Origin: Escherichia phage UGJNEcP3
Sequence record: OV876907
Length of the DNA stretch: 64,000 nt
Strand: one strand, 5' to 3'
Of this stretch, positions 7,100 through 17,469 are shown one piece after another (position 1 is the stretch's first letter; each line of letters opens with the position of its first letter). The notes beneath the pieces are model-generated. The model did no database searches. It was not told the DNA's origin and saw only the letters and a program-made list of their open reading frames with translations. The position numbers and the translations under genes are program-made.

Positions 7100-9148
7100 T
7101 TACCCTTGGGTGAATTTTTCTGGGGTTTCGTCAAAATTAATACATGAAGCTAAAATAGGCATTATATCCACCTTGGTCGATTTGACGAATGAATCAAAAG
7201 ACACACGGTTGTCGGTCTCTGTTTCTACGCCTTGGTAAACAACCAATTCGCCGGTTTCCATCAATGCATCACCATCATAGATAACCGCATTTTCTGCTAG
7301 TTGGTCTGTGGTCTGGATATCAGCTTCCAATAATTTGGTGTTGTAGTTTCCTTTATATGAGGCATCTGTAATTTTAGTAATCTTAACAGTAGTTCCACGT
7401 GGAAGAATAACCTCTTGTTCTGTTGGAGAACCTGACAATTCACCGGGCACAATTACGTTAATAGAGTCTGCACCGGAAATTTTCCAACCGATGTTCATCA
7501 TTGTATTTTCGGAACTCGTCAGCATACTTGGAAGAACAATTTCATTATTGCCTTGGAAAGATGTCCCAGCGCGATAGTCCTGATGAACTGCGGCCATTGC
7601 GACGTTTGATACCCAGCCGCCAAAGATAATCGGCTTAAGGGACGTTGATACATAGTTCCTGAAATAAAACAATTTTGAGTGTTTGATTTTATCAAAAGTG
7701 TTAACATTTAAATATTGACCACGCCAAAGTGTAATATCAGGTGGCAATTTATGGCCAATTTCAAATGCCGCATCCATATCATTAATTACTTCAATTACAC
7801 GATAACTATCAATAAATTCTGCATCCTCTTCATAATAATTACCCAACAAATAATTATTAACATCGGTATAATATTGGCCACAATAAGAAGAAATAGCCTC
7901 ACGCTGCCCATACTCAAATCGATTATCGCTATAACTGGCTGTAAAATGCATAACACTTTCTGACGCTTCATTAGCAAAGTCGGTAACAGCAGCACTTATA
8001 CGTTGAGCATACTCTTGTTCCCAAAGCTCTGCTGCATATTCTGCCGCATCCATATTAGGAGGAGCCTCATTCATTTTTCTTTCGATAAATGCAGCTTTGC
8101 GAAGGTTAAGAACCTCTGCACATGATTCGGCAAAAATCTGCATCTGCTTCATACTGCCGACAGGAGCACGTTTAAGTTCACGATGCATACGGTTAAAAAT
8201 TGGGTCAGAGTCTTCGACTCGAATTTCTTCTTTCCAAACACCGTTTGCTCGCATAGCCATATCTGCCGCGCGCATACGCTCCATAGTATTCGTTTCAGAA
8301 GGCTGAATAAAAATTTCCAGTTCTTCATAATCATCGATAAGTTCTGCTGTTGCTGGGGCACTAAATTTTGATGCCTCTGCATCAATCTCATTCCAACCTT
8401 CCGGAACTTCATCTCGAGGAGAATACTGGGCTGCGGCTACAGCACGCCTAGAAATCTTGGTAGTAGTAATAACGGCCTTATCCGTACGTTTTTCTTCGAC
8501 TGCCGCTATACTAGCAGATAGTGCTTCTATTTTGGTTACCGATTGGCCTGTTTTCTTGGATACATAAACCTCACCAACTTTAGACTCAACCTTAGTGTAA
8601 AGGTCTGCATCAATTTCAGGCATACCTTTTATGTCCTCAATATTAGCTTGTTTACGGACCAGTAAAACGTATGTATGTTTGCCTGTAAATTGATACATAT
8701 CATCGACAACTTTAAACTTGCCGCCAGTACGAGCCATCGCCAAACGTGCCAATACACGTTGAACAGTAGGACCCTTACCTTTCATTTTCTTGGTAGGGAA
8801 CCGGAAAAGAACTGCATCCATTTTAAGTTTGTTTACTTGTTCGTATACAGTATCAAAAATGGTATTCAGCGTACCAAGTGGGTCAGAACCTAACCCACCT
8901 TTCAACTCGGCTGGGCTACCCTTAGCAGACAAACTCATCAAAATAACATGAACATATTTGTCACCCGGCTTAACCATTTTAATAGCGTCTCCTTGAGACG
9001 CATAAGATACCATACGAGCAACCAGATTATCATTACCTGGTGCTTGGATAGAGAAAATCTGTGGAATACCGGGACCCGGTTTAAGATTTGTTACTGGATA
9101 GTTTTTAGCGGAATCACTATCAAAAACCTCATTTAAATTTTCCATCAT
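7100..9148 (-). CDS. alt: Alt-like ADP-ribosyltransferase paralog 2
   Basis: 682 aa. R-S-EXE signature FYFRNYVSTS ... EQEVILPRG; C-terminal tail ends PEKFTQG like T4 Alt; start 3 nt after the paralog 3 stop. Confidence 0.8.
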   Translation of the reverse strand: MMENLNEVFDSDSAKNYPVTNLKPGPGIPQIFSIQAPGNDNLVARMVSYASQGDAIKMVKPGDKYVHVILMSLSAKGSPAELKGGLGSDPLGTLNTIFDTVYEQVNKLKMDAVLFRFPTKKMKGKGPTVQRVLARLAMARTGGKFKVVDDMYQFTGKHTYVLLVRKQANIEDIKGMPEIDADLYTKVESKVGEVYVSKKTGQSVTKIEALSASIAAVEEKRTDKAVITTTKISRRAVAAAQYSPRDEVPEGWNEIDAEASKFSAPATAELIDDYEELEIFIQPSETNTMERMRAADMAMRANGVWKEEIRVEDSDPIFNRMHRELKRAPVGSMKQMQIFAESCAEVLNLRKAAFIERKMNEAPPNMDAAEYAAELWEQEYAQRISAAVTDFANEASESVMHFTASYSDNRFEYGQREAISSYCGQYYTDVNNYLLGNYYEEDAEFIDSYRVIEVINDMDAAFEIGHKLPPDITLWRGQYLNVNTFDKIKHSKLFYFRNYVSTSLKPIIFGGWVSNVAMAAVHQDYRAGTSFQGNNEIVLPSMLTSSENTMMNIGWKISGADSINVIVPGELSGSPTEQEVILPRGTTVKITKITDASYKGNYNTKLLEADIQTTDQLAENAVIYDGDALMETGELVVYQGVETETDNRVSFDSFVKSTKVDIMPILASCINFDETPEKFTQG

Positions 9149-11236
9149 TTACCCTTGGATGAATTTTTCTGGGATGCCATAGAGGTCTATGCATGAAGCC
9201 AAAAGAGACAGTACATCAACCCGTGTAGATTTAACAAATGAATCAAAAGATACAGGGCTTTCGGAAGTATCGAAATCATCTTGATATACGACCAACTCAC
9301 CGGTTTCCATTAGTACGTCACCATCATATACCACAGATTCTTGAAGCTCATCTGATGTCATAACTTCAGCTTGAATAAATTTATTGTTAGACACCGTCCC
9401 GGAACCAGTATTGGCTGATGCATCCACGATTTTATCTATTTTTACAAGTAGCCCGCGTGGTAAAATTATTTCCTTTTCGTTGGCATGCATGCTTAATTGG
9501 CCAGGATAAATCACGTTAACCTTATGAGCGCCACTAATAGCCCAGCCAACATCAACACGGATTTGATCCGGCGCATACATATGTGTACGCACTTGACTAT
9601 CAGAGATGGTAACGCCTTCGTCATTATTATCAATGTTTAATTCTTTTCGAACATCATCGGAAGCAAGACCAATAGCCGCATTCTCTTTAAAGCCACCAAA
9701 AATGATTGGAGCTAATGAGGTTGAAACATAGTTTCTAAAATAGAATACCTTATTTTTAACTAATGCTTCGTAGATAGGCGCGCGCAAAGATTGTGCTCTA
9801 TAAACCATTATTCCTTCAGGTAAACGGTCTCCATTTTTAAAGGCAGAATCCATTCCATCAATAGCACGTTTAACTTCGCTTTCGTCCAAAACTTCATAAA
9901 AGCCTGGTTTATAACGACCAAGAAGGACATTGTTAATATCAATATAAGCTGAAGAGGCGTATTCTCTGATAGCTCGTTTTTCTGCAAGTGTATATTGTTT
10001 AGGGTCTCGAGATGTTGTTATATTAAGAATTTCTCTAGTTGATTCTATAGCGTATGTATACATTATCTTAGACAAGAATGAAGACTTACGTTGTTTCCAT
10101 ACTATTTCACTGTTTTCATTCAATATCTCTTTTTCCAAATGGAAATTGTCTTTTCTATAATCTTCAAACCAATCACTTTTAATAGATTCTGCGATTTCAT
10201 TAGCAACTTCAACAAAGGCAGCTAAAGCTTTAACTGACGTGGTTTTTTCATTTTTAATTTTTTTGACAAATGTTTCTAAAGAAGAGTTAATTTTATCACC
10301 GTAAGAAACTTCATCCGCAAATTTAAATGAATCATCCATAGTATTATAAATTTTAAAATCAATAGCCGTAGCCAACTTATCCTTAGCTGTTTCAGATGAT
10401 AACGATAGTTCAACTTCGGCCGCTTGTGGAATTAATTCTGCCGTAGCAGGCGCACTGAACTCACTAGCAGTTTGCTCGTATTTCTGAAACAATTCACCTT
10501 CATTACGATCTGATTCTAATGACTGGCTTGCTGCAATAGCACGTCGCGAAATCTTAGTCTTGGTTATAACCATTTTATCGGTGCGACGTTCTTCAACCTT
10601 AGCAATACTGCCGGCAATAGCAGTTTCTTTAGTAACCTGCAGGCCTTCTTTTTTAGAAATATAAACTTCACCAACATCAGAATCTACCTTAGTGTATAAT
10701 TCGGAATTAATTCCTGGCATACCCTTAATATCTTCAATGTTAGCTTGTTTACGAACTACTAGGATGTAAGTATGTTTACCGGTAAATTGGTACATAGCCG
10801 GAACTACTTTAAAACGTCCACCTGTTTTCTGTGCTACCAAACGTTGGATAATCCGTTGAACAATAGGCCCTTGACCTTTCATTTTCTTAGTAGGGAAACG
10901 GAACATCACTGCATCCATACGAAGCTTTTTAACTTGGTCATAAACCACATCAAAAATAGTATTAATCGCATCTACGGGAGTAGGGCCAAGGCCACCCTTA
11001 AGTTCGGCTGGAGTACCTTTAGCTGAAAGGCTCATAAGGATAACGTGGGCATATTTATCGCCTAATTTAACTTGTTTAATAGCATCACCTTCAGAAGCGT
11101 AGGATACCATACGCGCTACTAATTGGGATTCTGCATCGCCAATCTTCCAAATCTGAGGTACTTTAAGTTTTGGGTTCAAGTTTACTGTAGGCAGAGTGCC
11201 TTCGGACTCAAACACTTCATTTAATTGTTCGGTCAT
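9149..11236 (-). CDS. alt: Alt ADP-ribosyltransferase (copy most similar to T4 Alt)
   Basis: 695 aa. FYFRNYVSTS ... EKEIILPRG ... PEKFIQG; central region recalls T4 Alt more closely than the other two copies. Confidence 0.8.
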   Translation of the reverse strand: MTEQLNEVFESEGTLPTVNLNPKLKVPQIWKIGDAESQLVARMVSYASEGDAIKQVKLGDKYAHVILMSLSAKGTPAELKGGLGPTPVDAINTIFDVVYDQVKKLRMDAVMFRFPTKKMKGQGPIVQRIIQRLVAQKTGGRFKVVPAMYQFTGKHTYILVVRKQANIEDIKGMPGINSELYTKVDSDVGEVYISKKEGLQVTKETAIAGSIAKVEERRTDKMVITKTKISRRAIAASQSLESDRNEGELFQKYEQTASEFSAPATAELIPQAAEVELSLSSETAKDKLATAIDFKIYNTMDDSFKFADEVSYGDKINSSLETFVKKIKNEKTTSVKALAAFVEVANEIAESIKSDWFEDYRKDNFHLEKEILNENSEIVWKQRKSSFLSKIMYTYAIESTREILNITTSRDPKQYTLAEKRAIREYASSAYIDINNVLLGRYKPGFYEVLDESEVKRAIDGMDSAFKNGDRLPEGIMVYRAQSLRAPIYEALVKNKVFYFRNYVSTSLAPIIFGGFKENAAIGLASDDVRKELNIDNNDEGVTISDSQVRTHMYAPDQIRVDVGWAISGAHKVNVIYPGQLSMHANEKEIILPRGLLVKIDKIVDASANTGSGTVSNNKFIQAEVMTSDELQESVVYDGDVLMETGELVVYQDDFDTSESPVSFDSFVKSTRVDVLSLLASCIDLYGIPEKFIQG

Positions 11237-11474: not shown

Positions 11475-12995
11475 TTATAACCCAGTTTGAGACCAATCAC
11501 CGAATACATCTTCAAATGTATCAGCTTCTGTTTTATCGAAACGCCAACCTTTAATGATAAGTAAGAAAACACCTACAGTATCGGTACGCCCTTTAGAATG
11601 AACCCAACCATTACATTCACAATCAGCGATACGTCCAATCAATTTACCTTCACGTGCTTCCTTCATCAGTCGTTCACGGTCCATATCAGGACGGTCTTCT
11701 AAAGGAATCAATATTTTCTTTTTAGTCTTAAAGTCTTTAGTGTGAGTTGTGTCTTTAAAGCCTGAACCACAGTCACTTGTAATTCGACGACACCGCGATA
11801 CTAACTCAACACCACCAATCTTGTTAGGGTCTTTAGAGTGTTCATAATAACCTACTACTTCTAAAGCGATATCGATTACTTCTTTGAACTTGATAAGATT
11901 CTTAGAACGGCGGTTTTCCCAATAGGAGTCCATGTTCTTAAGGATAATGCCTTCCAGACCTTGGTCGACATATTTCTTATAAACTTCACGAGCTTCTTTA
12001 AGATTATAGACCCATTGGTTTTCAATTGCTTCAACACGAGTTTTACCATGCAATACGACATTATGCCCTACCATATGTTCTAAGGCGGCAAAACGTACGT
12101 CGTATTTCTCGCCTTTAATTTTACCTTCAGAGTACACCACTTCAAGAGGAACATAGTCCCATGCCTGAAGAACCATACCAGCGGCTTCAGTAGCTGAAAT
12201 AGTACCATTCAGGGATTTGTTAGCTAATCCGTTTGAAGTGCTACGGTCTACAGCGAATTCTTTAGCCTTGCTTAGTTCAGGCATGTCTTCTTCAAACATA
12301 CTAAACAAGTCATTAGCTTCAGGTTGCTTAACCACCGGTTCATGGTAAACTAATTCACCATCAATTAATACGCCACCGGGATGTTTCTGACGTGCATCTT
12401 CAGTCATAACCATGAGCTCTTCAGCCAATAGATTAAGCCCTTGATATTCGTTACCGCCACGTGTAAGGAATGTTACGCCGTCGTTACGAACTTCAGCAAA
12501 ACATCGAGCCCCATCAGCTTTTAATTGAGCGAACGCTGGCCATTTAATATTTTTCTTAATCAGAGCTTCGTCATAAGAACTAGCCAACATTTGAGGTTGT
12601 TCAGGGATTAAACCTTTCCAAACCTTGTTAGCAATAGAAATTGATGCGCCACATTCAAGGTCACGCATCATTACGCGACGTAATACCTCAGCGTCCGGAC
12701 CTTTAGCATCAGCAATGATTTGGGCTAGTTCTTCAATAGCCGCATTACCTGTAATCTTACGGGTGGCTAGTGTGAACTCAGCGAAATCAAGAAGGTCTTC
12801 AAGTGTAATCATACCAAAGGATTGAGACGTAAATCCAGGTTCTGGCCACTTTTTAATGCCGTAATTCAGACGACGGGTATAGGCCATACGATAAACACGT
12901 TTCAGAAGCTCATTGTCCTTTTCACGAGCAATAATAGCTTCTTTAGCTTTAGTAGAATCAATAGCAGCAATTTCGTTTAAAATATCTAAAATCAT
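11475..12995 (-). CDS. 30: ATP-dependent DNA ligase gp30
   Basis: 506 aa; N-terminus MILDILNEIAAIDSTK... and the C-terminal FEDVFGD...TGL segment match recalled T4 DNA ligase closely. Confidence 0.9.
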   Translation of the reverse strand: MILDILNEIAAIDSTKAKEAIIAREKDNELLKRVYRMAYTRRLNYGIKKWPEPGFTSQSFGMITLEDLLDFAEFTLATRKITGNAAIEELAQIIADAKGPDAEVLRRVMMRDLECGASISIANKVWKGLIPEQPQMLASSYDEALIKKNIKWPAFAQLKADGARCFAEVRNDGVTFLTRGGNEYQGLNLLAEELMVMTEDARQKHPGGVLIDGELVYHEPVVKQPEANDLFSMFEEDMPELSKAKEFAVDRSTSNGLANKSLNGTISATEAAGMVLQAWDYVPLEVVYSEGKIKGEKYDVRFAALEHMVGHNVVLHGKTRVEAIENQWVYNLKEAREVYKKYVDQGLEGIILKNMDSYWENRRSKNLIKFKEVIDIALEVVGYYEHSKDPNKIGGVELVSRCRRITSDCGSGFKDTTHTKDFKTKKKILIPLEDRPDMDRERLMKEAREGKLIGRIADCECNGWVHSKGRTDTVGVFLLIIKGWRFDKTEADTFEDVFGDWSQTGL

Positions 12996-13279
12996 TTTAC
13001 CGTCCTTACAGTTTGTGTACTTCTATTATAAGCTACTTCATCTAAAAGCTCATTTAAAGTTTTGTGATACGATATAATACGCTTATCTTTAATATCGTAT
13101 TCAGTAACATACATAAATCCACGCCGAACACATTGGATAAAGATATCTTCATCTTTGGCTTGGAAATATACAGGGTTCAATCGAAGGAATTGTCTAACGT
13201 TTCCATAATCATGGGATTTAGGGGTCCCATCAGTAATTGTATGAACAACAAACATATTAACCTCGTGCAACCCATTCAA
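12992..13279 (-). CDS. hypothetical protein
   Basis: 95 aa ORF whose stop overlaps the ligase start; no recognised motif. Confidence 0.4.
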   Translation of the reverse strand: MNGLHEVNMFVVHTITDGTPKSHDYGNVRQFLRLNPVYFQAKDEDIFIQCVRRGFMYVTEYDIKDKRIISYHKTLNELLDEVAYNRSTQTVRTVK

Positions 13280-13895
13280 CAGCCGTATTATTACGAAGGG
13301 ATTCTATAGCTGCAATATCGTCCCATGAATTAACCTTTACTGCCAAATTGGGTTTAAAGTCGCGTTCACCACGGGCTAACCAATAAACTTGGATATCCAT
13401 GAGAACATTAGATGCAGCATCACAGTGGTGGGCCAAATCATCAACATAAAACTTAATATGTTTGCCATACGTATTTTTAGCTCTTATGAACAGGTCTTCT
13501 TTTGATTCTGAATGACCACACATCAGAATCTCTTTGAATGCGCCAGGGAACAAAGCATTCAAATTGAATTGTCTATTCAGCAGAGCATCAATTGAGTCGC
13601 CTAGCGCAGTCACGGCTACAAAATCGAAGTCTTTTTTGAGCTTGTTGATGTGTTTTAATGCGTCCATGTAAGGAGACAGATAACGAATGAAATCTGACTG
13701 GTTATATTTCTCAATTAAACGAGCGCCTAATTCATTATCACAATTAAACAGCTCGCCAGGAGATAAGAAACGTTCGTCCTGAATCATATTCAAAATATGT
13801 TCTAAAGGCAAATTATATTTCTGTGCGAAATAAGGCAAGCCGGACTGCCAACTTAAACATACTCCATCGATATCTGTTAAGATAACTGGTTTCAT
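13257..13895 (-). CDS. HAD-superfamily phosphatase-like protein (possible 5-prime(3-prime)-deoxyribonucleotidase type)
   Basis: 212 aa; N-terminal motif LTDIDGV (HAD motif I, DxDG) and a downstream YVDD acidic motif. Confidence 0.5.
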   Translation of the reverse strand: MKPVILTDIDGVCLSWQSGLPYFAQKYNLPLEHILNMIQDERFLSPGELFNCDNELGARLIEKYNQSDFIRYLSPYMDALKHINKLKKDFDFVAVTALGDSIDALLNRQFNLNALFPGAFKEILMCGHSESKEDLFIRAKNTYGKHIKFYVDDLAHHCDAASNVLMDIQVYWLARGERDFKPNLAVKVNSWDDIAAIESLRNNTAVEWVARG

Positions 13896-14359
13896 AATAA
13901 ATCTCTCAATTTGTTTAGGATGTCGATAAACTCTTTTTCAGTTAGTATTGTATCACATTCTGTAAGGTGGCTCGCCGTTGAATGCTTTAAAACCTTACCT
14001 TTAGTGGCTTGTAAAGCTTCTCGGAATCCTTTGTTCTGGAGCGCTGCTTCAAAATATGCACTTGTATACAACTCTTTCCATGATTCAGAGTATCTTGAAA
14101 AGGGAACTCCCATCCAAAAGAGGGTCCCACGGTCTTGAGCTCTTGCATAAGTTCGTCCAGCTTGCATTGCGGCCAATCCGGAGAGGCTAAATATACGTTT
14201 TTGTTGTTCATGATTTCTCACCTTACATCCTTGGAGGAATCCTTCGAGTCCACCAAATTGGATACTATCCATAACGAAAGGCCATTTAGCAAAGTTACTT
14301 AATGCACATGATGGCCATGGGAAATTACTTCTTATCTCTAACTCAGACATCTTTAACAC
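13892..14359 (-). CDS. NADAR-like domain protein (YbiA family)
   Basis: 155 aa; LSNFAKWPF ... LEGFLQGCK ... FREALQATKGKVL pattern recalls the YbiA/NADAR signature (SNFa.WP ... sEhyfQaqK); start overlaps the HAD-like gene stop. Confidence 0.5.
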   Translation of the reverse strand: MLKMSELEIRSNFPWPSCALSNFAKWPFVMDSIQFGGLEGFLQGCKVRNHEQQKRIFSLSGLAAMQAGRTYARAQDRGTLFWMGVPFSRYSESWKELYTSAYFEAALQNKGFREALQATKGKVLKHSTASHLTECDTILTEKEFIDILNKLRDLL

Positions 14360-14555
14360 TTATAATGTCAACATCAGCCCAATGGCCATAAGCAGGTAGA
14401 CGGTCTGCAATGGATAAACCGCCATCATATTTCAACATTTTAATTGTTTTAGTATACGGTTCAACATTTCGGGCCCATGGACTTACATCAGTCACACGAT
14501 ACGTAACTTCAACCATTTCTGTACCCAACAATTTCTGAATTAATTTCTTAAACAT
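14343..14555 (-). CDS. hypothetical protein
   Basis: 70 aa ORF in the early gene string. Confidence 0.35.
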   Translation of the reverse strand: MFKKLIQKLLGTEMVEVTYRVTDVSPWARNVEPYTKTIKMLKYDGGLSIADRLPAYGHWADVDIISVKDV

Positions 14556-14556
14556 G

Positions 14557-14751
14557 TTATCCTCGACGGAGCATTTTAATTAATGAAAGCTCTTCAGCCA
14601 TACGTACATCTTCAGTACCATCTACCCATAAAACTGCATAGGCTTCTTTAATTACTTTACCGTTAATTTTAAAAGCAGGTAACACCTTAGAAATCATTCC
14701 TGGGATACCTATACCTTTTAGCTGAACGGTTTGAGATAAGAATAAATGCAT
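14557..14751 (-). CDS. hypothetical protein
   Basis: 64 aa ORF in the early gene string. Confidence 0.35.
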   Translation of the reverse strand: MHLFLSQTVQLKGIGIPGMISKVLPAFKINGKVIKEAYAVLWVDGTEDVRMAEELSLIKMLRRG

Positions 14752-15038
14752 TAGAACCTCATCTGAAATCCATGTGATTTAACATTACCACCGTAGATGT
14801 CAGAAGTATTGACTTCGCGGGCAGCGCTAGGGTCGATATTAATATCATGGTTGAGCTTAGTGATTGCTAGGGTGTCACGACCATTAACTGTACGGAATTC
14901 TACCGGACAAACCACATCAGCATAAGCCTTAATGGATTCGCGAGTAGGCTGTTTGTCAGCAGGAACATCTTTACCTGCCTTAGAGAAAACAACTTCACAG
15001 AAATTTTTACGAGTATCGAAATAAGTGGTCATAAACAT
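14751..15038 (-). CDS. hypothetical protein (start re-set to the ATG with GAGGAAAATATT context)
   Basis: Track ORF extends to 15071 through the hairpin; the ATG at 15038 has a canonical RBS. Confidence 0.45.
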   Translation of the reverse strand: MFMTTYFDTRKNFCEVVFSKAGKDVPADKQPTRESIKAYADVVCPVEFRTVNGRDTLAITKLNHDINIDPSAAREVNTSDIYGGNVKSHGFQMRF

Positions 15039-15053
15039 AATATTTTCCTCAAT

Positions 15054-15069
15054 GGAGGCCGAAGCCTCC
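15054..15069 (-). promoter_or_regulatory. GGAGGCUUCGGCCUCC hairpin immediately upstream of an RBS
   Basis: 16 nt perfect palindrome with UUCG loop, then AUU, GAGGAAAAUAUU, AUG. An identical copy is at 52433-52448. Confidence 0.5.
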
Positions 15070-15079
15070 ATTTTTAAGA

Positions 15080-15445
15080 TTAGATATCAAATTCGTTAAG
15101 AACTACATCAAAGATTGCTTCCAGGTGTTCAGGTTTAGCACGGTTGCTCAGGATGTGACGAATCCAAGTTTTAACCAGAAGCTTACGATTATCGCCGTTC
15201 CAGCAAGGATGGGTACCTAAATCACGTTGACGGAAATCGTCATCTAAAGCGATTTTAAAAGTAGAACCTTCCATAGTGATTGAAACCGTAATACCATTTT
15301 CAAAGCGCATGTAAACGTAGTTAGGAGTCATGCACTGTTCGATTTCACACACTGTACCGTTTTCGTGTTTCCACAGGCAAATAACTTCGGAAGAACCAGC
15401 GATACCGTTAGAAACATATTTACGTTCGAAGTTGATGTAGTTCAT
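15080..15445 (-). CDS. hypothetical early protein
   Basis: 121 aa ORF preceded by a promoter-like module at 15446-15518. Confidence 0.45.
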   Translation of the reverse strand: MNYINFERKYVSNGIAGSSEVICLWKHENGTVCEIEQCMTPNYVYMRFENGITVSITMEGSTFKIALDDDFRQRDLGTHPCWNGDNRKLLVKTWIRHILSNRAKPEHLEAIFDVVLNEFDI

Positions 15446-15518
15446 TTTATTCTCCAGTTTGTTTTCGTATTATTTGGTACAGGTCTATAATAACACAACC
15501 TGTACCAAAGTAAAACAT

Positions 15519-15851
15519 TTATTTCACAACATTCCAATTTTTCATATCAAGTTTACCAACTTTTTTCATCTGAGCAATCAGACGTTCAGCACGTTTGCGG
15601 GCATTAACATAATAGAATTCACCAATTTCGTTTTCTTCAATACGGCCGGTAATTACAGTTTTCAGTTCATAAATCCAACCTGTAAAGAAGTTATGAAGCT
15701 CGATGGTAAAGGTGAAATCGGTACCCATACCTTCTGTTGTTTCAACTTCGATGATATCACCTTCAACTGCAGTCAGGACCCACATGGTTTCTTGATATTC
15801 ACCGTTGAAACATTTAGCTTTAACAGATGCATTCAGGTTTACAGTTTTCAT
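15519..15851 (-). CDS. hypothetical early protein
   Basis: 110 aa ORF preceded by a promoter-like module at 15852-15920. Confidence 0.45.
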   Translation of the reverse strand: MKTVNLNASVKAKCFNGEYQETMWVLTAVEGDIIEVETTEGMGTDFTFTIELHNFFTGWIYELKTVITGRIEENEIGEFYYVNARKRAERLIAQMKKVGKLDMKNWNVVK

Positions 15852-15949
15852 TTTATTCTCCGGTTTGTTTTCGTATTATTTGGTACATGTCTATAGTATC
15901 ATGCCTACCGGAGATGTACACCCTTTTTTTAAGATTTAGAAACAAAAAT

Positions 15950-15967
15950 GGGACTCCGAAGAGTCCC
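15950..15967 (-). terminator. C(UUCG)G hairpin with U-run
   Basis: Minus strand GGGACUC-UUCG-GAGUCCC followed by AUUUUUGUUUCU, just after the stop of small ORF 15973-16134. Confidence 0.5.
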
Positions 15968-15972
15968 ATAAC

Positions 15973-16134
15973 TTATACAATCACTTTACCGAAGCAAGCA
16001 GCATCTGCACGCAATACTGCACGAGCACGAGCTTGAAGCTTATCAACTACCTGATTGATACGCTTGTTAGACGCACGCTTGTAACCAGCGCGTTTAGAGG
16101 TACCGTCAACTACTTTAACTTCTTTCTTAGCCAT
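15973..16134 (-). CDS. small basic protein, 53 aa (absent from ORF track)
   Basis: ATG at 16134 to TAA at 15973-15975; Lys/Arg-rich (MAKKEVKVVDGTSKRAGYKRASNKR...); followed by a terminator hairpin. Confidence 0.4.
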   Translation of the reverse strand: MAKKEVKVVDGTSKRAGYKRASNKRINQVVDKLQARARAVLRADAACFGKVIV

Positions 16135-16392
16135 TTTTAAATCTCTTAAATTAGGATGCAGGACTTATTGGCGTTGCCTGCGCAAGCCCTCAAGGGAACA
16201 TAGGTTTTGGATATTTAACGACAGGATAACCATAAACCTCGTCATCATACCAACCACGACTTAGACAGATAACCTTTTTCTGACGCGTGATAGTACAAAA
16301 TACATTCAAGAGGTACACCGTAAAACTGCCGGGGTCTTAAAACTATAATGATTCGCAAATCATTAATCAGACAGTTCGACGGCTCCTCGATT

Positions 16393-16641
16393 TTACTTCA
16401 GGGTAATAATAAAATGACGTACTGCTTTACGAGCTGCTGAAGCCAAAGGCTTAGCATATTTCAGTTCATCTTTTGCTTCCAGTTCAGCCGCCAGTGTGGC
16501 CTGTGCTGGGTTCAGATGTTTGAAATAACGCAGGATTTCCAGTGCTTCGGCTTCAACATCAATAGATGCGCCGTAGTTTTCATGACCGTTGTTCCAAGCG
16601 TTGCGTTGCAGTTCAAGAGCGTGATTCAGTTGTTTGTTCAT
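16393..16641 (-). CDS. rIII: rIII lysis inhibition accessory protein
   Basis: 82 aa; MNKQLNHALELQRNAWNNGHENYGASIDVEAEALEILRYF... is near-identical to recalled T4 RIII. Confidence 0.9.
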   Translation of the reverse strand: MNKQLNHALELQRNAWNNGHENYGASIDVEAEALEILRYFKHLNPAQATLAAELEAKDELKYAKPLASAARKAVRHFIITLK

Positions 16642-16779
16642 TTTAGTTTCTCAATTCGAGATAAAGATTGGTGGACACGTTCTTCTGAATTTCACTTCCT
16701 TTCGGCAAGTCTCTCAGTTGTAGTCCACCGCTTAGGATTCTCCGGTTAACTAACTAGTCCGGCAGCCAATCCATATTAT

Positions 16780-16787
16780 TATTTATA
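16780..16787 (-). promoter_or_regulatory. late promoter TATAAATA upstream of rIII
   Basis: Exact TATAAATA on the minus strand directly after the gene 31 stop, with a ~140 nt leader to rIII. Confidence 0.45.
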
Positions 16788-17111
16788 TCACTTATAAAGA
16801 CACGGAATTGCCTTGTAGTGACAAGTAACGAATTTTTGTTTAATTTCTTTAGGTTGTTTAATACCCAATGCAACCAACGGATGAGGCACGTTAGCAATCT
16901 TACCAACAGGAAGTGGAGTCAAATCGCCTACTTCACAAAAATCTTCAGGGACATCAGGTCCTACAGAATAAATTTCACAAAGTTCAGGGATTTCACCTTG
17001 ATGAAGTTTGCCAATAACGATACCAGATGCAGTAGTTTCTTCATCACCAGCTTGTTTTGGTTCGGAAACGAGAATAACATATTCTCCGACCGCTTTAATA
17101 GGAAGTTCCAT
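16788..17111 (-). CDS. 31: co-chaperonin gp31 (GroES analogue)
   Basis: 107 aa; [12 protein letters not shown]...VGPDVPE...[15 protein letters not shown] matches recalled T4 gp31. Confidence 0.9.
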
Positions 17112-17141
17112 ATTTAATCCATATTGTTTTGTTGATAGATT

Positions 17142-17168
17142 AATAATAACACGCTATTCTTAAAGCAT
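17142..17168 (-). promoter_or_regulatory. candidate MotA-dependent middle promoter for gene 31
   Basis: Minus strand ATGCTTTAA (MotA-box-like), 12 nt, TATTAT, about 30 nt upstream of the gp31 ATG. Confidence 0.35.
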
Positions 17169-17169
17169 A

Positions 17170-17469
17170 TTACAGGACAAGCAGAGTTTCAGTCTGGAGC
17201 CCGTTAATAGAAATCAGTTTATCGAAACGGAACGAGCGCCAGTCATTAACCTTGGTATCAAATACACGAATATAATTAACCGGTTCTTTATTAGCTTCTG
17301 GGCCAGGTGCTTGAATTTCTTTATACGGGAGGAGGTCCAGGTCGCGAGTACAAGTCATACGACGAACGCTACCATCCGTCTTTTCAAACAGAACTTCGTG
17401 AAAGCCTACAGACAAGATAGTCTTGACTTTTTCACGGAGCCGAATAGTTTCTTGTTCAGTTAAAATCAT
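17170..17469 (-). CDS. hypothetical protein
   Basis: 99 aa ORF between 31 and cd. Confidence 0.4.
   Translation of the reverse strand: MILTEQETIRLREKVKTILSVGFHEVLFEKTDGSVRRMTCTRDLDLLPYKEIQAPGPEANKEPVNYIRVFDTKVNDWRSFRFDKLISINGLQTETLLVL

Follow-up and report, generated by a model that had tools for sequence, protein, structure and literature searches.

The NADAR (DUF1768) superfamily was founded on E. coli YbiA, an N-glycosidase of riboflavin intermediates, and includes DarG1, the DarT1-associated antitoxin described in E. coli C7 and Geobacter lovleyi (PDB 8bat; Schuller et al. 2023). The closest described relative of the gene considered here is gene 30.3 of phage T4, renamed adfN for anti-DarT factor NADAR (Johannesman et al. 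2025, PMC11825919). Purified T4 AdfN strips ADP-ribose (ADPr) from DarT1-modified DNA, and rescue is impaired by E36A, K43A or a C-terminal truncation; RB69 AdfN, which has a 15-residue C-terminal truncation, displays reduced activity (PMC11825919). The T4 enzyme acts on G-ADPr and not on T-ADPr (PMC11125620), and is without activity on C-ADPr (PMC12945103). T4 can do without adfN on E. coli K-12 (insertions are tolerated at 27 of 28 sites) and requires it only in the presence of DarTG1; in a published transposon screen (HIDEN-SEQ) under DarTG1, 30.3 insertions are lost (log2FC = -7.25, adjusted p = 0). According to the literature, T4 AdfN is necessary and sufficient against DarTG1 during T-even infection. 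It fails to protect uninfected E. coli against DarT1 and is fully functional only in T-even infections (PMC11825919), so its in vivo mechanism has a further component. In published trees, DarG1-type NADARs are the nearest neighbours of the gp30.3 clade (PMC11825919), and the gp30.3 family is recognised as a “phage NADAR” clade, with a His where YbiA-type proteins have a last-strand Glu and DarG1-type proteins an Asp (PMC11125620, PMC11543638).

The window, a 64,000-nucleotide stretch of DNA, matches Escherichia phage UGJNEcP4 (Dhakavirus, Tevenvirinae) at 100% identity. An earlier note on this DNA, made from the sequence alone, had pointed at a NADAR-like and a HAD-like ORF, and both are present on the minus strand where it placed them, carrying the motifs it quoted (LSNFAKWPF and LEGFLQGCK at residues 17–25 and 35–43 of the former, DIDGV at residues 8–12 of the latter). 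Gene order alt-30-30.1-30.2-30.3-30.4 is common to the window and T4. The distance of 2 kb to an ADP-ribosyltransferase (ART) cluster likewise holds, with the end of the closest Alt-like ADP-ribosyltransferase gene at 11236, ~2.0 kb from 13257, and a second Alt-like paralog directly beyond that gene. The two ORFs do overlap by 4 nt; the direction given by the earlier note, a NADAR start on a HAD stop, has to be reversed, because both genes run right to left and the NADAR stop (TGA, 13894–13892) therefore overlaps the HAD start (ATG, 13895–13893). A promoter and terminator scan of 12900–17300 was uninformative, returning fewer promoter-like sites than shuffled controls. Coordinates of all features are collected in the table.

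Features of the adfN region (positions in the window; assignments of function are predictions)
Feature	Position	Strand	Basis or remark
Gene 30.4 ortholog, 70 aa	14343..14555	-	PHROG 2042, E = 1.4e-33; 43% identity to T4 gp30.4
adfN, T4 gene 30.3 ortholog; 152-aa stand-alone predicted NADAR-fold ADP-ribosylglycohydrolase	13892..14350	-	Homology, Pfam, AF2, Foldseek, hhalign
LSNFAKWPF, N-terminal NADAR motif, residues 17–25	14276..14302	-	L17, S18, N19, F20 and F25 invariant (42–43 family members)
LEGFLQGCK, residues 35–43; putative catalytic E36 (14243–14245) and K43 (14222–14224)	14222..14248	-	Both residues invariant
H123, clade-defining His	13982..13984	-	Invariant in family alignment; opposite YbiA E125 by alignment register
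AdfN C-terminal helix, residues 138–151	13895..13939	-	Helix in model; same protein length as T4 AdfN
ATGA junction, adfN stop and 30.2 start	13892..13895	-	Direct sequence reading; same 4-nt overlap in T4
Gene 30.2 ortholog; 212-aa HAD-superfamily (C1-capped, subfamily IA-like) predicted phosphatase	13257..13895	-	
HAD motif I DIDGV, residues 8–12: nucleophile D8, acid/base D10	13860..13874	-	D8, D10 and G11 invariant in 40 homologs
HAD motif II, T96	13608..13610	-	At least 90% conserved in 40 homologs
HAD motif III, K132	13500..13502	-	Invariant in 40 homologs
HAD motif IV, D152-D153 (Mg2+ ligands)	13437..13442	-	Invariant columns

The longest NADAR-like ORF, 13892–14359, begins at an in-frame GTG that is a mechanical ORF start; homology places the start at the ATG at 14350, yielding a protein whose N-terminus, MSELEIRS, is that of T4 gp30.3. 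Over its whole length of 152 residues, this protein shares 84% identity with T4 gp30.3, to which it is equal in length, and it matches Pfam PF08010 (Phage_30_3) with E = 1.5e-62 (209.9 bits, cut-off 36). Orthology to T4 gp30.3 thus extends over the full length, C-terminal helix included. The two copies share their position between 30.4 and 30.2, the overlaps on either side, E36, K43, H123 and the C-terminal helix, and differ by 24 substitutions and by genus (Dhakavirus versus Tequatrovirus). An off-frame ORF at 13987–14211, the counterpart of T4 30.3', was considered as a real gene and rejected: 13 of 14 close relatives keep this frame open, but an equally long off-frame ORF arises in 2278 of 5000 synonymous-codon shuffles of adfN, the start codon of the ORF at 13987–14211 is not conserved, and its identity to the T4 version is 55%, compared with 84% in the main frame. 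It is thus no more than expected by chance.

In the public record of UGJNEcP4 (OV877765.1), adfN is annotated merely as a 91-residue C-terminal fragment that leaves off the catalytic half of the protein. The GenBank CDS, currently at record positions 132993–133268, should be corrected to 132993–133451 on the complement strand, since protein-level surveys of anti-defence genes would miss or mis-score a gene annotated in this form.

Searched alone, the window protein has no match to Pfam NADAR (PF08719) at E <= 1 and no meaningful match in NCBIfam, in PADLOC (including any DarG-type model) or by phmmer against the PDB, so that its membership of the NADAR superfamily rests on family profiles and a predicted structure. 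At the family level, 10 of 43 gp30.3 family members match PF08719 (best E = 1.2e-5), and when the family profile is compared with E. coli YbiA by hhalign, the probability is 91.4% (E = 9e-7) and both quoted motifs are aligned, LSNFAKWPF falling opposite YbiA FSNFAAWPI. Run against the PDB, the same profile returns YbiA as its sole match (E = 0.014). The AF2 model of the adfN product (pLDDT 93.9) adopts the alpha+beta fold of NADAR proteins. Its top three Foldseek matches in the PDB, at probabilities of 0.98–1.00, are the only NADAR structures deposited there: YbiA (2b3w; best match, E = 6e-5, TM 0.67, ~20–26% identity), PnNADAR (8bau) and GlNADAR (8bat, 0.98). The next match has E = 3.5, and no other exceeds a probability of 0.1. 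The earlier note had named two observations that would count against its NADAR call; the first, lack of a Pfam NADAR match, applies to the window protein alone, whereas the second, loss of the catalytic residues in a proper alignment, does not, as these are conserved. By family profile and predicted fold, the call is correct, and the ORF at 13892–14350 belongs to the phage NADAR clade.

The putative active site points in the same direction. E36, K43 and H123 are invariant among the 43 members of the family alignment and correspond, in the hhalign register, to YbiA E48, K55 and E125. The window protein carries the E-x2-F/L-Q-x2-K motif by which we recognise the catalytic pair (E43/K50 in PnNADAR, E88/K95 in the E. 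coli C7 protein), with the same Glu-to-Lys spacing of 7 as in PnNADAR. H123, located just after strand 120–122 of the AF2 model, provides the His that marks the phage clade. AdfN therefore resembles DarG1 in its predicted fold, in its Glu and Lys pair with 7-residue spacing and, judging from the T4 ortholog, in having guanine-ADPr in DNA as substrate class. It differs from DarG1 in consisting of the core domain without the N-terminal extension, in having His for the catalytic Asp (D171 of the E. coli C7 protein), and in being an orphan gene with no paired toxin; moreover, the T4 ortholog cannot stand in for DarG1 in uninfected cells. No other single protein matches AdfN as well as YbiA does, by structure or by profile, which could suggest a metabolic N-glycosidase whose substrates are intermediates of the riboflavin pathway, perhaps with a HAD phosphatase as partner, as happens in riboflavin biosynthesis, and one gp30.2 homolog bears the JGI name “FMN phosphatase YigB”. 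That name, however, was given automatically, and only one of 120 gp30.2 homologs carries it. The family-defining Glu of YbiA is invariantly His in the AdfN family, published trees put the gp30.3 clade next to DarG1-type NADARs (PMC11825919), and the DarTG1 phenotype of T4 30.3 is direct. We consider such a metabolic role extremely unlikely.

We consider it very likely that 13892–14350 (minus strand) encodes AdfN, a DNA ADP-ribosylglycohydrolase, and that 13257–13895 encodes gp30.2, a HAD phosphatase working independently of it. In the proposed mechanism, the DarT1 toxin of a host DarTG1 system would ADP-ribosylate guanines in phage DNA and block replication; AdfN would cut the N-glycosidic bond between ADP-ribose and guanine, releasing ADP-ribose and restoring the base, so that replication could go on. 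The active site would comprise E36 and K43, contacting ribose and phosphate, together with the clade-specific H123. Orthology, full length, intact catalytic residues and the NADAR fold are established here for this copy from alignments and a predicted structure, and we infer that it has the activity of the 84%-identical T4 protein, with 16% of residues differing. The earlier note had offered two roles for the gene, countering host toxins that ADP-ribosylate DNA or tuning the phage's own modifications, and the former has been demonstrated for T4 AdfN against DarTG1 (PMC11825919).

The other proposal, that the NADAR reverses or tunes ADP-ribosylation by the phage's own Alt, ModA and ModB (arginine-ADPr on host proteins, or RNAylation), finds no support beyond its setting: adfN lies 2 kb from the two Alt-like ART genes in the early-gene region, and T4-like NADARs are expressed early together with ARTs (Iyer et al., PMC9503650). 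Every activity tested so far for the T4 enzyme concerns ADPr linked N-glycosidically to a base, where G-ADPr is cleaved and T-ADPr and C-ADPr are not; the gene is dispensable on K-12 and becomes essential only under DarTG1, a condition in which alt is neutral in the T4 transposon data. A role in self-modification is therefore very unlikely. Johannesman et al. (PMC11825919) raised possible activity against other ADP-ribosylating defences, and AdfN might additionally degrade soluble or RNA-linked ADP-ribose derivatives produced by other host immune systems. The sole demonstrated phenotype is nevertheless against DarTG1, with no effect on DarTG2, and such a broader anti-defence role appears unlikely.

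The downstream neighbor, gp30.2, is 71% identical to T4 gp30.2 over the catalytic domain and lacks the ~70-aa Pro/Tyr/Asn-rich C-terminal tail of the T4 protein. It displays all four HAD motifs (I DxD, II T/S, III K, IV DD), and its confidently predicted fold is a Rossmannoid HAD core with a cap. DIDGV is placed at the end of strand 4–7 and the remaining motif sites at the ends of strands 91–96 and 147–152 and before helix 133, which is canonical HAD topology. With HAD subfamily IA phosphatases, including the 5'(3')-deoxyribonucleotidases (NT5C; 2jao, 3bwv, 4mum), it shares the DxDG, T, K and DD motifs and a helical C1 cap inserted after motif I; unlike them, it stays below the thresholds of the Pfam NT5C and HAD models, its best score among Pfam HAD families being 13.6 bits with NT5C, whose cut-off is 24.8. 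Among 40 gp30.2 homologs, 9 contact NT5C, 6 Hydrolase and 4 HAD_2, with weak E-values. The HAD assignment of the earlier note is accordingly right by motifs and fold, established through family-level profiles and structure, whereas the window protein itself fails the NT5C threshold. The strongest sequence lead from Pfam and the PDB is NT5C, yet it is sub-threshold, and structurally it is on par with dehalogenases, phosphoglycolate phosphatases and others, so no HAD subfamily stands out. A literature search for “gp30.2” found nothing. The protein looks like a catalytically competent HAD phosphatase, judging from motifs and model, and its substrate would most likely be a small phosphorylated metabolite or nucleotide.

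The overlap of the two genes could indicate a two-step module, with gp30.2 processing the ADP-ribose that AdfN releases (or a phosphorylated form of it) or acting as the T-even factor that T4 AdfN reportedly needs (PMC11825919). The ATGA stop/start overlap is also kept in T4, and the two genes are common in a shared set of phage groups (phage records: 1510 for one and 1437 for the other). The adjacency, however, is confined to close T-even relatives. Among 80 viral loci with a gp30.3 homolog, 15 have 30.2 starting at the 30.3 stop or a few bases from it, and 6 have it 0.7–1.2 kb downstream; in the other 59, it is missing from the fetched flank of up to 4 kb, and some of these loci come from full-length contigs of ~165–175 kb. 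Furthermore, T4 30.2 is neutral in HIDEN-SEQ under DarTG1 (71 sites, log2FC = -0.12, p = 0.61), the condition in which 30.3 is lost. Because adjacency is not conserved and 30.2 is neutral, gp30.2 is rejected as a partner of AdfN; a two-step module is highly improbable, and the functional link between the NADAR and HAD proteins suggested earlier finds no support. The ATGA overlap reflects T4-type tight gene packing rather than a two-enzyme pathway, probably with translational coupling, and in itself yields no new biology.

On its upstream side, adfN is overlapped at its start by the stop of gene 30.4 over 8 nt (ATGTCTGA, 14343–14350). Gene 30.4 is found directly upstream of adfN in 14 of 14 close relatives, and gp30.4 homologs were detected only in phages whose AdfN is >80% identical, always in this directly upstream position. 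In the published T4 transposon data under DarTG1, 30.4 is mildly depleted (log2FC = -1.79, adjusted p = 0.014) and is the only other significantly depleted gene in its block. The small, T-even-restricted gp30.4 could thus be the T-even factor that AdfN needs for full in vivo activity, to which we assign a small chance. The depletion is more simply read as a polar effect, or as the result of losing the ribosome-binding site of adfN, which is contained in the 3' end of 30.4.

The biology of this NADAR gene is that already published for T4: T-even phages have a NADAR of their own, resembling an antitoxin but with no toxin partner, that removes DarT1 damage. The earlier note reached from raw sequence alone a result that had needed chimeric-phage genetics. 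Since its adfN is intact, UGJNEcP4 is predicted to resist DarTG1 hosts, whereas RB69, with its truncated allele, does not.

Escherichia phage UGJNEcP4 (OV877765.1; Dhakavirus, Tevenvirinae) matches the window at 100% identity, and the minus strand of the region carries a T4-type early-gene block in the order alt - alt.1 - 30 (DNA ligase) - 30.1 - 30.2 - 30.3 - 30.4 ... 30.9. Both ORFs highlighted in an earlier note, a NADAR-like protein and a HAD-like phosphatase, are present as described there and correspond to genes 30.3 (adfN) and 30.2. Their overlap was also correctly noted, but in the opposite direction: as both genes run right to left, it is the NADAR stop that meets the HAD start. The reported vicinity of ADP-ribosyltransferase genes holds, with the nearest Alt-like gene 2.0 kb from the pair and a second paralog beyond it, whereas the corresponding T4 block harbors just one alt gene. 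A strong terminator-like hairpin (15948-15969, minus strand; 9-bp stem, 5 G-C pairs, T-run) separates 30.8 from the 30.9-like ORF, and 30.7 has a promoter-like site upstream (15514-15487; extended -10 TG); these may be the transcription-unit boundaries of the 30.7-30 block.

Coordinates of adfN, its neighbors and the Alt-like genes in the window
Feature	Position	Strand	Remarks
adfN / 30.3 ortholog	13892-14350	-	ATG start, 152 aa
gp30.2 ortholog, HAD-like	13257-13895	-	212 aa; DIDGV = residues 8-12
gene 30.4 ortholog	14343-14555	-	70 aa
adfN stop / 30.2 start overlap, ATGA	13892-13895	-	window sequence
30.4 stop / adfN start overlap, 8 nt, ATGTCTGA	14343-14350	-	window sequence
Alt-like ADP-ribosyltransferase, nearer copy	9149-11236	-	Pfam ADPrib_exo_Tox E = 1.7e-28
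Alt-like paralog, farther copy	~7100-9145	-	in tandem with 9149-11236

The longest reading of the NADAR ORF (13892-14359) begins at a GTG; homology supports the ATG at 14350, which yields the N-terminus MSELEIRS exactly as in T4 gp30.3 and places LSNFAKWPF at residues 17-25 and LEGFLQGCK at residues 35-43. In OV877765.1, the gene is annotated from the internal Met62 only, as a 91-aa C-terminal fragment (window 13892-14167; CAH1616812.1) devoid of the catalytic N-terminal half with the LSNF motif, E36 and K43, leaving 14168-14342 unannotated. The DNA nevertheless encodes the intact protein (record coordinates 132993-133451). In its +1 frame, adfN contains an ORF of 74 codons (13987-14211, minus strand) that corresponds to the annotated T4 30.3' (55% identity) and stays open in 13 of the 14 close relatives. 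Nothing supports it as a gene, because its start codon is not conserved and 46% of synonymous-codon shuffles of adfN contain an off-frame ORF of equal length.

The window protein shares 84% identity with T4 gp30.3 over all 152 residues and matches Pfam PF08010 (Phage_30_3; E = 1.5e-62) as well as PHROG 652. Taken alone, it has no match in Pfam NADAR, NCBIfam, PADLOC or, by sequence, the PDB, so that the refutation proposed earlier, lack of a significant profile hit, would be ambiguous if taken literally. Family profiles do recover the relationship: Pfam NADAR is matched by 10 of 43 family members (best E = 1.2e-5), YbiA is the sole PDB match of the family profile (E = 0.014), and hhalign aligns this profile to E. 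coli YbiA over 97 columns (91.4% probability, E = 9e-7). The alignment pairs LSNFAKWPF with FSNFAAWPI, LEGFLQGCK with SEHYFQAQK, E36 with E48, K43 with K55 and, by register, H123 with E125. P13, L17, S18, N19, F20, F25, E36, G37, F38, Q40, K43, R86, H123 and several more residues are invariant among the 43 homologs (35-89% identity). At the family level, the link of gp30.3 to NADAR is clear. A confident alignment-based AlphaFold2 model (pLDDT 93.9, pTM 0.88), compared with 350,542 PDB chains, retrieved YbiA (2b3w, E = 6e-5), 8bau and 8bat as top matches (probability 0.98-1.00), the fourth match having E = 3.5. 8bau is a Phytophthora NADAR with bound ADP-ribose and 8bat a Geobacter lovleyi DarG1-type NADAR.

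The gp30.3 proteins are a recognized "phage NADAR" family, marked by a His at the position of Glu in YbiA-type and Asp in DarG1-type enzymes (PMC11125620; PMC11543638; PMC12945103). Purified T4 gp30.3 strips ADP-ribose from guanine in DNA, not from thymidine (PMC11125620) or cytidine (PMC12945103). Johannesman et al. (Nat Commun 2025; PMC11825919) traced T-even DarTG1 resistance to gene 30.3, renamed adfN: the sensitivity of RB69 is due to a frameshift that deletes the 15 C-terminal residues; rescue is impaired by E36A, K43A and this truncation; and purified AdfN, not E36A, de-ADP-ribosylates DarT1-modified DNA. In an independent T4 transposon screen, 30.3 was dispensable on K-12 and lost under DarTG1 (log2FC = -7.25, adjusted p = 0). 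The suggestion that the NADAR counters DNA ADP-ribosylating defense toxins is thereby borne out for the T4 ortholog. There is no support for the alternative raised with it, in which the phage would tune its own ADP-ribosylation by Alt/Mod: the activity tested is confined to guanine N-glycosidic ADP-ribose, and adfN is essential with and dispensable without DarTG1. A YbiA-like role in riboflavin metabolism is unlikely, since an invariant His replaces the Glu of YbiA and the DarTG1 phenotype is direct. Broader action against RNA-linked or soluble ADP-ribose derivatives is conceivable.

We also considered gp30.2 as a partner of AdfN or as the T-even factor that AdfN-T4 reportedly needs. Both genes are widespread among these phages, with 1510 and 1437 phage records. 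A gp30.2 homolog starts at or a few bases from the 30.3 stop in 15 of 80 viral-contig gp30.3 loci, namely close T-even relatives and one Morganella phage. It is found 0.7-1.2 kb downstream in six loci, and the remaining 59, some of them from full-length contigs (~165-175 kb), have none in the flank fetched, which spanned up to 4 kb. Under DarTG1, T4 30.2 was neutral (71 insertion sites, log2FC = -0.12, p = 0.61), as were alt, 30.6 and 30.7. The spacing in these flanks and the T4 insertion data both speak against gp30.2 in either role; the ATGA overlap is usual T4 gene packing, probably gives translational coupling, and is not evidence for a pathway. Distant NADARs of the gp30.3 family (35-45% identity) occur frequently on 100-500 kb phage contigs (e.g., L033, L038, L071, L073, L076 and L079 among viral loci L019-L082), where the flanking sequence covered, up to 4 kb, contains no 30.2. 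Homolog P0106 resides on a 995-kb contig of a Bacteroides sp. metagenome-assembled genome, hence the clade is not strictly limited to T4-like phages.

The HAD-like assignment of gp30.2 itself holds for motifs and fold, despite sub-threshold matches to Pfam NT5C (13.6 bits, cut-off 24.8) and to PDB sequences. The protein belongs to PHROG 420 (E = 1.5e-70) and shares 71% identity with T4 gp30.2 across about 195 residues. Conservation among 40 homologs extends to all four HAD motifs (D8, D10, K132, D152 and D153 invariant, T96 at least 90% conserved). In the model (pLDDT 93.6), every motif sits at its canonical strand end, and motif I is followed by a helical C1 cap. T4 gp30.2 (278 aa; viral locus L002:3475-4311) bears a roughly 70-residue Pro/Tyr/Asn-rich C-terminal tail, whereas the window copy ends after the HAD domain; homolog lengths form two groups (~200-230 and ~250-340 aa). 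As dehalogenases, phosphoglycolate phosphatases, deoxyribonucleotidases and other subfamilies score alike, gp30.2 is best described as a predicted HAD phosphatase whose active site is intact and whose substrate is probably a small molecule or a nucleotide.

On the other side of adfN, gene 30.4 was significantly but mildly depleted in the T4 DarTG1 transposon data (log2FC = -1.79, adjusted p = 0.014). This depletion is most simply explained by polarity or by loss of the ribosome-binding site of adfN. Less probably, gp30.4, whose homologs were found in close T-even loci only and in every case immediately upstream of adfN, could be a genuine helper of AdfN.

The earlier observation is confirmed and its interpretation supported, the feature being AdfN plus an unrelated HAD neighbor, gp30.2. 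With E36, K43, H123, the modeled C-terminal helix (residues 138-151) and the T4 length all retained, the gene is, as judged from its sequence, an intact ortholog of the already known AdfN, and on this basis the phage would be expected to withstand DarTG1.
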